This document shows, piece after piece, positions 39,889-44,221 of a stretch of DNA of 64,000 nt. The notes beneath the pieces were generated by a model that saw nothing but the letters and a program-made list of their open reading frames with translations, was not told the DNA's origin and did no database searches. How positions within the stretch are numbered: position 1 is the first letter of the stretch; every line of letters starts with the position of its first letter. The stretch is taken from sequence record OR836606.1; one strand, given 5' to 3'. Made by a program: the position numbers and the translations under genes. Source of the stretch: Staphylococcus phage LY01.

Positions 39889-39942
39889 AACCTTTAAATG
39901 TAGGAGTAACGATCAAAATAATAATCATTACTCCAATTTAAT

Positions 39943-40389
39943 TTATTTACTTTCTTCAATAATTTCTTTAACTAAATTATTTATTTCTTGAGGTTTTAAA
40001 TCATTGATATCATCTACATTTTCATATTTTTCCATTAAGAATTCTAATTGATCTTCATTTAAATCCATAATACCTAGTAATTCATCTTCTTCAGGTTCAT
40101 CAAATGTCATACTAACATTTAATGGGCTGAAGTAAGCATTAAGTACTTTAGTATTATTATTTTGAGTTCTTTTTTGTATATCTTTTGTATTGATCTTAAA
40201 TGGATTACCTGTATATAATTCAACTAATAAACGTTTACGCATATCTGGATTATTTGAGTACATATTCGTTAATTGATTGATTGCTTTGATAGAGCCACCG
40301 ATCATCATATTAGTTGTTTCCATTTCACCGATGCGGAGCGGATTGTTGTTAATTCTTGACAAATATTTCTTGGACATGTGTATTAGCTT
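39943..40389 (-). CDS. RNAP beta subunit C-terminal gene, last exon
   Basis: KLIHMSKKYLSRINNNPLRIGEMETTNMMIGG matches DK(M/L)[39 protein letters not shown]. Exon starts immediately after the G that ends mini-intron 4. Confidence 0.75.
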   Translation of the reverse strand, partial: KLIHMSKKYLSRINNNPLRIGEMETTNMMIGGSIKAINQLTNMYSNNPDMRKRLLVELYTGNPFKINTKDIQKRTQNNNTKVLNAYFSPLNVSMTFDEPEEDELLGIMDLNEDQLEFLMEKYENVDDINDLKPQEINNLVKEIIEESK

Positions 40390-40578
40390 CATGCATTTTG
40401 CATAAAGATTAGACTATATCATTACCATTTAAGGTAGAATATATTTAGTCGTTGAACAAGCCTTACCGACTTGATGCTGATTTAATTAATAAATTATTCC
40501 AGCAATTAATATTACTTTTTTATATTATTCTTTCGAATAATACCGGACACAAGAAATTTATCCGGAGTTCTAGTAGGT
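40390..40578 (-). ncRNA. mini group I intron 4 of a tandem array in the RNAP beta gene
   Basis: P TTAATTGCTGGAA (40498-40510 rc), Q AATCAGCATC (40473-40483 rc), R GTTCAACGACTAAAT (40444-40458 rc), S GATATAGTCT (40411-40420 rc). A P9-like hairpin TGCAAAATGCA is followed by a G directly before exon codon AAG (K). Confidence 0.65.
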
Positions 40579-40780
40579 CGTTTATCTTATATTAATTTTA
40601 ATACAAGACAGACTATATCATACTCATTATTATGAGTGAATATATTTAGTCGTTGAACAATTTTCATTGATGCTGATTATTCTTAATAGAACTTTCCAGC
40701 AATTAATATTCTTTTACTGAGACATCTACATATCCCACTGTAATTGTTAAAGTCTAATGATTTTGCACTGATTTTCTTTA
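40579..40780 (-). ncRNA. mini group I intron 3 of the tandem array
   Basis: P 40694-40706, Q 40669-40679, R 40645-40659, S 40610-40619 (all rc). After S comes a hairpin and AAACG (G at 40579). Confidence 0.6.
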
Positions 40781-40961
40781 CGTTAATCTATATAATTTAT
40801 TATATAGAACAGACTATATCTTATACTTTTGAAGCATTAATATATTTAGTCGTTGAACAGTATTTAACTGATGCTAATCAATTTTATTAAATCGTCCTAG
40901 CAATTAATATTATAATTATAAATTATATTTCTATAATAAACGGCAAATTTTTACCTGATGG
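40781..40961 (-). ncRNA. mini group I intron 2 of the tandem array
   Basis: P CCTAGCAATTAA 40896-40907, Q 40870-40880, R 40845-40859, S 40811-40820 (rc). Hairpin TCTATATAA...TTATATAGA, then TAACG (G at 40781). Confidence 0.6.
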
Positions 40962-41148
40962 CGTTATTCATATAATACATTTATTATATGACAGACTATA
41001 TCATAATCTATTAATATAATAGATAATCTTTATTTAGTCGTTGAACACTTAATTGTGATGCTGATTATTCTGATAAGAATTTTCCAGCAATTAAAAGATT
41101 TTCGAATGAATCTTTGCAGATACATAGGAGACATCTAATTTGATTCTC
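40962..41148 (-). ncRNA. mini group I intron 1 of the tandem array
   Basis: P 41082-41094, Q 41057-41067, R 41033-41047, S 40994-41003 (rc). 10 bp hairpin TCATATAATA/TATTATATGA, then ATAACG (G at 40962). Upstream exon homology (GDLYHLKLKH matching GYMYMLKLNH) ends at about 41149. Confidence 0.6.
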
Positions 41149-41666
41149 ATGTTTTAATTTAAGGTGATACAAATCTCCAACCATAAATGTTCTATTACTT
41201 ACGTCTAATCTATTTTTCTTAATATTATATTTATTAAATACGTATCTTAATTGTTCTGAATCAATATTACCAAAAAATGGTGCTTGGTGTAGCACAATAC
41301 CTTCTTTAATAATTTCATCAATAGCTTCTTTAGTTTCAGATAAATCTAATTGATTAAATAATTTAACATAATTGTCATATGAAATTTTATCTACATCTTT
41401 AATATATCCTAATAGATATTCTTTCTGTTGATTAATATCATCTAATTTACTTATACGATGTCTTATTACATTTGACACATGATTTAACTCTAATTCAATT
41501 AAAGCTGATGGATTACCACGGTTAATGATACCCATATTATTATGAATTAAATCTACTCGTTTACTAATTGGTGTTTTAGTAGAATCTTTAGTGAAATCTT
41601 CTCCATCGAACTCTGTGATCATTGGCATTTGATCATCAGGTACAATTTCAGCCACAACGCCTTTGC
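41149..41666 (-). CDS. RNAP beta subunit C-terminal gene, middle exon
   Basis: ...GGKGVVAEIVPDDQMPM...VDLIHNNMGIINRGNPSALIELELNHVS...MVGDLYHLKLKH matches bacterial beta HGNKGVISKINPIEDMPY...[24 protein letters not shown]...VGYMYMLKLNH. The track ORF 41065-41655 extends into intron read-through (LLIAGKFLSE is encoded by the P element). Confidence 0.75.
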
Positions 41667-43128
41667 CGCCATCGAGTCTTCAGCAAAGATCGCTAATCTT
41701 TGCCCGTTCTCTTATGAACTGCTCTAGATTTTCTCTAGAAGACGAGACTATATCTTCACCCTAAAATTTAGGAGAACTATGTTTCCATTTAATAGAATTA
41801 CATTAAGCTAATATCACTTAAAAACTAACCGCTTGGCTGTACTCTACTCATATAGTAATTTTCTTCATTATAATATATACCATTTTGTATATACATTATA
41901 TTTTCACCATACTTATCGATAGTCGTTGAACTAATTAAATTATTGTCTAATATTTCATTCATTAATTTTCTTAATGTATCTAAATATATAGTTCCTTTTA
42001 TTCTTATCATATTATAATTTTTATTTTTTATAATTAAATTTTTAGTATCATCTATTAATACACATCTATTATAATGATCCCAACCTTTTTTAACTTTACT
42101 GTTTTTCCCACCCCAAGGTCGAAAATGTTGATTTCCATCAACTTCAATTATTAAATTTAATTCAGGGATATAAAAATCATATTTATAATACTTAGATTTA
42201 GATACATTTAGATTATTGTTTATTTTAAAATCATATTCATATTTTAGATTATTTGTTTTTAATATTTTAATAATTTCTCTTTCTGCTTTAGAAAAACTTC
42301 TTTCTTTATAACAAAAAGGACATCTTATTCCACCATTAACAAAATTTTTCCTCGTTGTTGTACTATATACTTTTCCACATTTTTTATGTTTTAAAGTTAT
42401 AGGAATTGTCTCTTTTACATATTCACCAAACATCTCATATTCACCATTAGAAACTTTTTCAATATCTTTTTTACAAGATTCCGTTGTCACTTCATAACCT
42501 GAGCATCGTTTACATATTGTTTTTACTCCATCTTTTCTTTTTCTTTTTAAAAGAGTTGTAGGAGATATATTTACAATATGTCCACATTTATGTTTAAATT
42601 TCATAGACTTACTGAATCCTTTATAATCTTCTTTATTAAATGTATATTCTCCTGGTAAAAATTTATTTAGTTTGTATTCAAGATTTTCTGGTGTTTGATT
42701 TTTAGTATAGAAACAATTGGGACAATAACCATGTTCATTATCTCTTTTAAATGTATGAGGTTTGGTTTTAAATTCTAAACCACAATCTAAATGTTTAATT
42801 AATGTAGATGTATCTCCGTTAATGTATTCTCCAAGAAGTACATAATTTTTATTATTTAAAATATTTTCAAAAATTCTTTTATTTTCTTCTCTTTTCATTT
42901 TAATCATTCCTTTCAAAAAGAAATGAATATTAGACAATTTTAATTAGCTGCTGATTAACCATTGCAAAAATACTTAGGTTTTTCAACCATATATTATCTC
43001 ATTTATTATCTTCAACTTTTCAGTAACCATAGAGGTTAAATGAGCTTTAGGCAGTCCCAGCAATTAATAGTTTTTTAATAGCATGTTACCATACTATGAG
43101 ACCTAGTTTGATCTCGTTGTGATTTTCG
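41667..43128 (-). ncRNA. group I intron (about 1.46 kb) in the RNAP beta gene carrying a homing-endonuclease ORF in P6
   Basis: P AATTGCTGGGACTG (43047-43062 rc), Q AATCAGCAGC (42943-42952 rc), then an ORF. R GTTCAACGACTATCGAT (41927-41943 rc) lies inside the ORF's 3' end. S AAGATATAGTCTC (41746-41757 rc) is followed by P9/P9.1 hairpins (TCTAGAGAAAATCTAGA; GCAAAGATTAGCGATCTTTGC). Joining ...HG-(x)-KGVVAEIVP restores the conserved beta HGNKGVISK motif. Confidence 0.7.
41825..42937 (-). CDS. intron-encoded homing endonuclease (zinc-finger repeats + DUF559/Vsr-like PD-(D/E)xK domain)
   Basis: Multiple CxxC...CxxC pairs. C-terminal YDFYIPELNLIIEVDGNQHF matches the DUF559 motif (R/Y)xDF...l(v)IE(v)DG..H. 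The track start is TTG. An ATG with AAAGGA RBS at about 42898 is the more likely start. Confidence 0.65.
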   Translation of the reverse strand: MSNIHFFLKGMIKMKREENKRIFENILNNKNYVLLGEYINGDTSTLIKHLDCGLEFKTKPHTFKRDNEHGYCPNCFYTKNQTPENLEYKLNKFLPGEYTFNKEDYKGFSKSMKFKHKCGHIVNISPTTLLKRKRKDGVKTICKRCSGYEVTTESCKKDIEKVSNGEYEMFGEYVKETIPITLKHKKCGKVYSTTTRKNFVNGGIRCPFCYKERSFSKAEREIIKILKTNNLKYEYDFKINNNLNVSKSKYYKYDFYIPELNLIIEVDGNQHFRPWGGKNSKVKKGWDHYNRCVLIDDTKNLIIKNKNYNMIRIKGTIYLDTLRKLMNEILDNNLISSTTIDKYGENIMYIQNGIYYNEENYYMSRVQPSG

Positions 43129-44221
43129 ATCCATGAACTAAAGGTTTCTTTTCTAAAACTTTAACTCTGAAAATAATCTTATCAAATTGATTGTTATCGT
43201 AAACTAATTTAGCGTTATCATCAATATATCCTTTGAATTTATTATGGATTCTAATTAAGTCATTACTAAATTTCTTTTTACGTACAATATCATCTGTAAC
43301 AGTTACAAATGTTTTATAGAAGTGTCTCAATTCTTTAATATATTTAACAAATTGCTCTGAATATTTTTGATTTTCTAATTTTTCAATATCTTCATTATTA
43401 AGAACATCAATATCAATAACTTTACCGTGAACTTTATAAGCATTATCGTCTTCTAATGTTTTAGTAAGCATTTCATTTTTGAATTTATGAATAATCTCAT
43501 CATAATTCAATCTACGAGTTGCACACAATATTCCATTTTGAACTTCTTCTCCTACATCTGGAAATGATTTATATTCTTCTTCATTACCATATAAATTTAA
43601 TGGAATATCGTTTGTATTAATAGTAATATTGATTACATTCACAAAATAACTTGACATTTTCTCTGCCAATGATTCTGATACTACAATTCCGTCTTCATTC
43701 GTCATACCTTTGAACGGTAAGAATACGGAAGTTGCATTAGCTCCATATTGAAAGTTATTATCTTCATCATAGTTCTGGTCTTTAAATAATACAGTTTCTT
43801 TACTAACCGTATCTCCAACTTTCAATTTATCAATTTCTTCATTATTATATTTATTTCCAAACTTCTCTGCTAAATGGTTAGCTTCTTCTCTAATAATTAC
43901 ATCATATTCATCATTATCTTTGTACTTAATTAAATAATATTTAACATACTTATTTTTTTCAAACTTATAAATAACTTCAAAATCTCTATCAGCTTTCTTA
44001 TATCCAGTTGAATATTTACCCACTTGATTTTCAAAACCAGTCTGAATTAAAGGCGGTTCAGCACCAGTTAATTGAATACATTGACCGATATGAGACGTGA
44101 ACATTTGAGATCTGTTACCATTAGTTCTATTAACATTAGGCATTAATAGAGGTTCTGATAAAAACTCATGACTTCGATTAGCTTCAATTTCTACCATTCT
44201 TTGTGTCTTCTCTTTTGTCAT
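43129..44221 (-). CDS. RNAP beta subunit C-terminal gene, exon 1 (regions D-F)
   Basis: GANATSVFLPFKGMTNEDGIVVSESL matches [26 protein letters not shown]. The end ...LEKKPLVHG matches GDKLAGRHG. The last 8 codons of track ORF 43103-44221 are intron read-through. Own promoter-like motif, hairpin and TAGGAGTG RBS upstream. Confidence 0.75.

Follow-up and report, generated by a model that had tools for sequence, protein, structure and literature searches.

A probable array of four tandem mini group I introns in the non-virion RNA polymerase beta gene of a Staphylococcus jumbo phage

The window analysed here, a 64,000-nucleotide (nt) stretch of DNA from Staphylococcus phage LY01 (OR836606.1), contains a gene for the beta subunit of the non-virion RNA polymerase (RNAP) that is very probably interrupted by four tandem mini group I introns (I1 to I4) without open reading frames (ORFs), together with a larger upstream group I intron (I0). 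The array lies at 41145..40375 on the minus strand, a 771-nt region in which four head-to-tail copies of one ribozyme core occupy the most conserved catalytic-site segment of beta (KLKH-EPSGK-SAKS...RIGEME). Removal of the four small introns and of the endonuclease-bearing I0 would restore the beta frame, and it is from this anatomy that we infer splicing. An initial annotation of this DNA had proposed four tandem, ORF-less, minimal group I introns with very short exons in RNAP beta, and this is borne out by matches to the Rfam model RF00028, by covariation and by the uninterrupted allele of phage PALS_2.

Exon map of the beta gene

Searching with positions 39900-41700 of the window (megablast) gave nine Staphylococcus jumbo phages as the only matches, five at about 94% identity (MarsHill, Madawaska, PALS_2, S6 and DC4) and four at 81-84% (AH12, PB50, SA1 and Machias). 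The window belongs to an AT-rich, AR9/PBS1-like, MarsHill/PALS_2-like Staphylococcus jumbo phage. The feature annotated beneath the match is the gene for the non-virion RNAP beta subunit, on the minus strand. In the window this gene (the C-terminal half of beta) spans 44221..39943 and consists of a 2142-nt reading frame and five group I introns totalling 2137 nt. The PALS_2 gene is a single unbroken ORF of 2142 nt, and S6, DC4 and SA1 match continuously across the region with no inserted sequence; these four served as intronless reference alleles. Joined together, the six exons of the window amount to exactly 2142 nt and 713 amino acids (aa), free of frameshifts and stops, with 694 of the 713 residues identical to PALS_2 (97%). 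The features are as follows, all on the minus strand; exons were placed by comparison with the uninterrupted PALS_2 gene (blastn and tblastn), and the blastn alignments are given with them.

43111..44221, exon 1 of non-virion RNAP beta (C-terminal half), ending ...ACGAGAT; PALS_2 nt 1-1106 at 44221-43116
41673..43110, I0, group I intron, 1438 nt; P1 helix GAGAU/GUCUC with U.G; 3' core match at 41843-41706
41146..41672, exon 2, aa 371-546 (...GDLYHLKLKHE), extending 3 nt to 41143 if I1 uses its U.G site; PALS_2 nt 1112-1637 at 41672-41147
40962..41145, I1, 184 nt (181 nt if the 5' splice site lies after GAGAAU at 41143); guide GAUGUCUC; P3 AAUCUUU/AAAGAUU; 3' end ...AAUAACG
40953..40961, micro-exon B, 9 nt, CCAUCAGGU (DNA CCATCAGGT), Pro-Ser-Gly
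40776..40952, I2, 177 nt; P1 GGU/AA (cleavage after U) with UUGCC; 3' end ...UAAAG
40732..40775, micro-exon C, 44 nt, KISAKSLDFNNYSG plus the AU of Ile (DNA AAAATCAGT...AGTGGGAT); PALS_2 nt 1648-1691 at 40775-40732, 86%; tblastn aa 550-564
40579..40731, I3, 153 nt; P1 GGGAU/GUCUC; no P2; 3' end ...AUAAACG
40560..40578, micro-exon D, 19 nt, ACCTACTAGAACTCCGGAT, read A CCU ACU AGA ACU CCG GAU, completing Ile and then encoding PTRTPD; PALS_2 nt 1693-1711 at 40577-40559
40375..40559, I4, 185 nt; P1 CCGGAU/GUCCGG; P2 with GAAA loop; 3' end ...ACACAUG
39943..40374, last exon, protein SKKYLSRINNNPLRIGEME... to the stop; DNA starts TCCAAGAAATAT at 40374; PALS_2 nt 1714-2142 at 40371-39943

The micro-exons follow from the length of the uninterrupted protein. 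Bacterial beta had been taken to have only about four residues (LVDD) between the two flanking segments first recognised. PALS_2 has 25 residues there, KHEPSGKLSAKSLDFNNYSGIPTRTPDSKKY (EPSGK(L/I)SAKSLDFNNYSGIPTRTPD), and AR9 beta shows the same residue spacing. All 25 conserved residues are found in the window as three in-frame pieces, in order and bounded by junctions after U and after G, so the gap contains micro-exons of 9, 44 and 19 nt, and the cooperative or exon-skipping removal suggested initially is not needed. Across the 31 codons around the array, alignment with PALS_2 reveals about 12 synonymous codon changes and a single Leu-to-Ile replacement, and such nearly all-synonymous change indicates that the micro-exons are under purifying selection as coding sequence. 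Other 3' splice sites were considered for I1 (...TATATG), I2 (...TTAACG) and I4 (...GCATG), each of which breaks the frame or makes a stop, and joint removal of I1 and I2 was rejected as it would lose Pro-Ser-Gly.

This map also adjusts the boundaries proposed at first. The array is real, though it runs from 41145 to 40375 and not from 41148 to 40390, and the flanking beta segments agree with the original description apart from 'KLIH M', which belongs to an intron: the start called by the ORF finder at 40392 (MKLIHM) is an in-frame ATG within I4. The sequence ...AACG, thought to end every copy, is the 3' splice site of I1 and I3; I2 ends 5 nt later, after TAAAG, and I4 does not end there at all. 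Its last G had been placed directly before an AAG codon, whereas I4 in fact ends 15 nt further on, with ACACATG followed by TCC.

An ORF finder reports two frames here, 41065..41655, with its stop inside I1, and 39943..40392, starting at that ATG, and split RNAP subunits are known in jumbo phages, for instance beta and beta' in AR9-like phages (Korn et al., bioRxiv 10.1101/2020.12.14.422802). One might therefore suppose that beta is truly divided into two separately translated polypeptides, with the 770-nt spacer an unspliced repetitive or regulatory RNA. We regard this as extremely improbable. The 25 residues that would be missing are all present, changed almost only synonymously; upstream of the ATG at 40392 the sequence, as read, shows no purine-rich ribosome-binding site; and PALS_2, S6, DC4 and SA1 make one continuous protein. 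Nor does the interruption resemble an AR9-type boundary between N- and C-terminal parts, given 25 conserved codons inside the "gap" and relatives with a single ORF. We therefore prefer to read beta as one polypeptide that would include EPSGKISAKSLDFNNYSGIPTRTPD.

The ribozyme core

Each of the four units contains an exact minus-strand copy of the 14-mer TTCAACGACTAAAT, at 41045-41032, 40857-40844, 40657-40644 and 40456-40443, and a repeat search places the four copies in register with spacings of 201, 200 and 188 nt. The copies, described initially as near-identical, are in fact only 50-66% identical outside the invariant core, and it is for this reason that the tandem repeat finder TRF detects no long-period array. 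Allowing up to two mismatches, TTCAACGACTAAAT occurs 10 times in the whole window against 1.3 expected, a count reached in none of 100 shuffles. The core blocks UAAUUGCU, AGCAUC, GUUCAACGACUAAAU and AUAUAGUCU are intact in all four units. Within them GUUCAACGACUAAAU ... (A/G)AUAUAGUCU does not vary in I1-I4, P7 is GACUA/UAGUC, and the joining segments J6/7 and J8/7 are conserved.

A covariance model was built on eight copies from the window, for which the P3-P4-P5-P6-P8-P9 structure was derived by hand. It finds 24 copies in the window plus seven sister-phage loci, so the wider family of copies that had been suspected in this DNA holds up. I3 scores 159 bits against this model and I1 153 bits, I1 being part of its seed. 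Of the cells in an alignment of 24 family copies, 90.8% pair, compared with 36-44% when the partners are slid, and 25 of 34 pairs have changed on both sides; none of 500 shuffles reaches the observed values. I2, I4 and c50b (a family member described below) are absent from this alignment, as the flank columns of the full-length model overlap their neighbours. The conserved core helices P3, P4, P5, P6, P8 and P9 are thus kept by compensatory change, and the P4 of I2 has a compensatory A-U of its own. P4, P7 and P8 were also recovered from a structure-blind MAFFT alignment with RNAalifold, and in single-sequence folds every one of the four introns forms the P4-P5, P6, P8 and P9 hairpins. When only 801 nt were searched, RF00028 covered each unit end to end (model positions 1-253), with the following scores.

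I1, 46.2 bits, E 1.7e-10
I4, 34.4 bits, E 6e-7
I3, 26.5 bits, E 1.4e-4
I2, 16.2 bits, E 0.16

Several observations weigh against the identification of four functional group I introns. All four units fall below the RF00028 gathering score of 50 bits, and a default Rfam scan of the whole window or of a 3-kb sub-region returns nothing, which we attribute to the filters of that search. I2 scores weakly (16.2 bits) and its J4/5 is altered. The covariation alignment was fitted to the structure of the model and is biased toward it. Cores this small (153 nt) and AT-rich (20-27% GC across the introns) may be unable to fold unaided, and the 5' junction of I1 predicted from the protein falls after a G (GAG) rather than a U. 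Taken with the evidence above, we conclude that all four introns share the core P3-P4-P5-P6-P7-P8-P9 with Twort-like phage group I introns but have no P7.1/P7.2.

There is no sense-strand ORF of at least 40 aa inside I1-I4. Among the introns of this gene only the upstream I0 has one, of 370 aa (41825..42937), with just a weak DUF559 (Vsr-like) match. The last codons of this ORF read through the J6/7-P7 segment (...LISSTTIDKYG covers GTTCAACGACTATCG), so that its coding sequence and the catalytic core overlap.

Splice junctions, proposed splicing and origin

The junctions derived from the protein coincide with the pairings expected of group I introns. In I2 (GGU/GCC), I3 and I4 the exon-final U wobbles with a guide G (U.G), and G is the last nucleotide of all four introns. 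Candidate P10 pairings are found for I2 (AAA/UUU), for I3 (ACCUAC/GUAGAU, 5 of 6 pairs) and for I4 (8 bp between the 3' exon CAAGAAAU and intron nt 3-10). In the 9-nt micro-exon B, as read from the sequence, nt 2-5 are able to pair with the I1 guide as P10 and nt 7-9 form the P1 of I2. Synonymous substitutions relative to PALS_2 give rise to such pairings: AGA U replaces CGC U at I0, GGG AU replaces GGA AU at I3, CCG GAU replaces CCA GAU at I4 and, after I4, AAG AAA replaces AAA AAG.

The exception is I1. A P1 with U.G is present in all ten other mapped family members (I0, I2, I3, I4 and six more), and the terminal G in all, while the U.G site of I1 lies 3 nt downstream of its protein-based junction, after GAGAAU. 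It is possible, if rather unlikely, that all four are group I introns but that not all are autonomous and canonical, with the I1 site and the need for cofactors in doubt. Canonical U.G cleavage of I1 would add an Asn to a catalytic loop of invariant length (KHENPSGK), or else a non-U.G site would be used; tiny AT-rich cores may in addition need a phage or host RNA chaperone or maturase, or correctly folded neighbours. The 5' end of I1 is homologous to those of I0 (GAGAT followed by CAAACTAGGTCTC) and of the MarsHill intron at aa 365 (GGAT followed by CAATTAATCGGTCC), which would set the start of I1 at CAAATTAGATGTCTC, after GAGAAT, and add one Asn codon. Position -1 is a U in all ten of the other mapped members. 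Both the solved AR9 polymerase (7S00 chain C) and PALS_2 keep the same KHEPxxK spacing, so that one more residue there would be out of the ordinary. P2, P8 or P9 is missing from some family members, and the guide GUCUC is common to I0, I1 and I3, making cross-pairing possible, compare the exon skipping reported for phage Twort (PMC3073962). Set against this, with the junction after GAG the guide 5'-GAUG-U-CUC-3' aligns GAG and CCAUC side by side exactly at the protein-predicted junction. A poorly spliced intron is unlikely to be tolerated in an essential gene, and I1-I4 hold no maturase-like ORF.

The anomaly at I1, the weak RF00028 score of I2 and the fact that exact look-ups with three window proteins gave no contig in the collections searched also bear on whether one or more units have decayed and no longer splice, leaving this copy of the gene a pseudogene and the genome defective, mis-assembled or chimaeric; uracil-containing DNA is hard to sequence, which makes mis-assembly plausible. 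We consider this highly unlikely, as the invariant core blocks are intact in all four units, helices are preserved through compensatory changes, the exon frame is unbroken as described above, and plaque-forming sister phages have comparable arrays.

On the preferred reading of a functional intron array, we propose that each intron would fold independently in the nascent pre-mRNA. The internal guide would form P1 with the final 3-6 nt of the exon before it (U.G at the point of cleavage), an external guanosine would open the intron, and the freed exon end would then attack behind the terminal G while P10 keeps the downstream exon in place. Each micro-exon may therefore have a triple role as protein-coding sequence, as P10 partner of the preceding intron and as P1 partner of the next. 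Splicing in 5'-to-3' order, which like the routes of mobility below is proposed from sequence features, would then restore the beta frame.

The array appears to have been assembled by independent insertions of diverged family members. Recent proliferation within the genome had been suggested, but each of the four introns has its nearest relative elsewhere, at a different site or in a different phage, and not among the other members of the array. The closest relative of I3 is the MarsHill intron at aa 365 (82%), that of I4 the MarsHill/Madawaska intron at aa 585 (78%), and that of I1 the MarsHill/Madawaska intron at aa 372 (69%); compared with the AH12 intron at its own site, I4 shows 75.8% identity at 100% coverage. 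At synonymous sites the exon bases next to I2 and I4 resemble Machias and the middle of exon D resembles PALS_2, which suggests either homing with short co-conversion tracts at I2 and I4 or, alternatively, selection for P1/P10 pairing. A single guide, GUCUC, serves I0, I1 and I3, which are inserted after GAGAU, GAGA(A)U and GGGAU respectively, and the location of I1 and I3 at such look-alike targets hints that guide-directed ectopic insertion may have placed them. A retron-like reverse transcriptase was considered as the driver of the intron load, through reverse-splicing mobility, and rejected, being present in 9 of 9 phages including the four intronless ones. This retron-type enzyme (MarsHill L008:19090-20595 and homologues) is 56-100% identical across all nine Staphylococcus jumbo phages, and upstream of it lies a conserved 1.2-kb non-coding region.

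A more far-reaching view is speculative, and on balance doubtful. The family may include the smallest natural self-splicing group I ribozymes (146-185 nt), with a 9-nt exon serving at once as codons, I1 P10 and I2 P1. An essential polymerase would in that case be expressed correctly only if co-transcriptional splicing ran in order, I1 would perhaps be cleaved at a non-U.G site, and the shared GUCUC could allow regulated exon skipping.

Related introns and known systems

Intron arrays in the beta gene are already present in sister phages, where the gene is annotated with six exons in Machias, four in MarsHill and three in Madawaska. Korn et al. (bioRxiv 10.1101/2020.12.14.422802) predicted interruptions of beta by protein alignment alone and did not describe the ribozymes. 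Exactly at the I2 site (after ...TCAGGT) and the I4 site (after ...CCGGAT), introns are found in Machias and AH12, which have in addition an endonuclease intron at about aa 541 and a small intron at aa 585, so that the same 45-codon stretch holds four introns; their micro-exons measure 20, 63 and 44 nt. In MarsHill the introns lie at aa 365, 372 and 585, with a 22-nt micro-exon, and in Madawaska at aa 372 and 585. The description of the window array as highly unusual was therefore overstated. What differs from Machias is the absence of the aa 541 endonuclease intron and the aa 585 intron, and a shortest exon of 9 nt. The I1 site (aa 546/547) and the I3 site (codon 564) are empty in 9 of 9 GenBank relatives and are new; the I2 and I4 sites are not.

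Searched by blastn with I1 or I4, the family is found at 21-26 places in AH12, 23-24 in Machias, 14-16 in PB50, 10-12 in Madawaska and 9-10 in MarsHill, and at none in PALS_2, S6, DC4 or SA1. When IMG/VR was searched with a protein seed for relatives of the beta exon, none appeared, and a strict three-block DNA pattern likewise matched nothing. The P7-J8/7 motif GTTCAACGACTAAAT...ATATAGTCT is present at at least 120 metagenome loci and at least 120 IMG/VR loci, which include 200-380-kb phage contigs and giant-virus bins (L053, L226, L073 and L017 among the loci). Among the matches listed it forms clusters of 5-7 copies within 3.6-5.4 kb. Dense intron clusters seem common in large viral genomes. 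Neighbouring copies are 188-201 nt apart in the window, 190-246 nt in sister phages and at least 280 nt among the matches listed (about 240 loci).

Further members of the family, and elements close to them, were noted elsewhere in the window, again on the minus strand. The first three lines describe a second tandem pair, in the virion RNAP beta gene, with junctions mapped against DC4.

51020..50875, c50b, 146 nt, lacking P2 and P8 (P3' then 7 nt then GAUAUAGUC)
50874..50857, exon of 18 nt between the pair
50856..50691, c50a
27498-27338, c27, 161 nt, in the non-virion RNAP beta-prime gene; junction AACCGT/.../AACCCT mapped against PALS_2; no P9 hairpin, with 9 nt only between P7 and the 3' splice site
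60202-59996, family copy of 152.9 bits, right after an HNH_3/NUMOD4 endonuclease ORF (60168..60530) and upstream of a staphylococcal-nuclease-like ORF (59368..59799)

A P8-less form like c50b is also seen in Madawaska (two copies) and Machias (one), and looks like a maintained, presumably functional variant. The gyrA gene is also split, its N-terminal part at 55600..58362 and its C-terminal beta-propeller part at 52796..53617 (minus strand) being separated by an insert of about 2 kb (53618-55599). The insert has a GC-richer group-I-type core at about 55372..55160 (GTTCAACGACTATCG ... GATATAGTCT) followed by a TnpB ORF (53824..55044; 406 aa, with OrfB_IS605 and Cas12f1-like TNB domains) whose Machias homologue, 88.8% identical, is annotated 'transposase'. 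Its layout resembles an IStron (a group I intron with an IS605-type TnpB), and neither Rfam nor the small-intron model sees the ribozyme part. As the N-terminal ORF of GyrA (920 aa, 55600-58362) carries a LAGLIDADG-domain intein (Intein_splicing 1e-16), as reported for MarsHill gp228, a single gene holds both an intein and an intron-like insert.

The standard Rfam scan finds nothing of the whole small-intron family, whether at the gathering threshold or at E<=10 on 3 kb. In AH12 and PB50 the corresponding genes are entered as series of unconnected 'hypothetical' or 'RNA polymerase' fragments (L004 and L005), apparently a systematic gap in annotation. Default scanning misses the family, so genes in such phages are easily mis-annotated as fragments. 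What the window adds is a previously uncharacterised family of very small ribozymes and an exceptionally dense case of an already annotated phenomenon, with the tightest group I intron packing among the loci compared, four within 72 nt of coding sequence and one exon of 9 nt. It offers a compact natural system for asking how small a group I ribozyme can be, how mis-pairing is avoided between adjacent ribozymes with shared guides, and how ORF-less introns build up in an essential gene at its most conserved motifs.

Mobile group I introns in conserved catalytic segments of phage multisubunit RNAP genes are also found in AR9 and in nucleus-forming phages, an example being the intron endonuclease gp210 of PhiPA3 (PMC11620839). 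Those cases are single introns, often with an endonuclease of demonstrated role in phage competition, whereas I1-I4 are ORF-less. Among compact group I introns, that of Azoarcus tRNA-Ile is about 205 nt long, with a compact P3-P9 core and few peripheral elements; it is GC-rich, belongs to subgroup IC3 and lies in a tRNA. By comparison the window introns have 20-27% GC, family members elsewhere in the window go down to 146-161 nt, and some lack P2, P8 or P9.

The nearest likeness is to orf142 of the staphylococcal phage Twort, a small gene that contains three group I introns (reported by Landthaler and Shub in 1999) and whose I2 ribozyme has a crystal structure, 1Y0Q. The Twort ribozyme sequence used here agrees at 98.3% with AF132670. 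Both systems combine a staphylococcal phage, several ORF-less group I introns per gene and similar guides permitting exon skipping. The Twort core strings are near-identical to those of the window (UAAUU..., CAACGACUA, AAUGAUAUAGUCUG, then the P9 hairpin), with the same P7, J6/7 and J8/7. The window-built model scores two orf142 introns at 48.4 and 42.2 bits, with insertions of 79-108 nt where P7.1/P7.2 lie. The Twort introns are about 250-290 nt long and carry P7.1/P7.2 between P7 and P3', as is characteristic of subgroup IA2, whereas the window introns measure 153-185 nt and in I1-I4 GACUAAAU is followed directly by P3'. The core is related to subgroup IA2, but the window introns are not structural members of it, and the family is thus a miniaturised relative of the Twort-type phage introns. 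The window further differs from Twort in having four introns within 72 nt of exon, in a different host gene.

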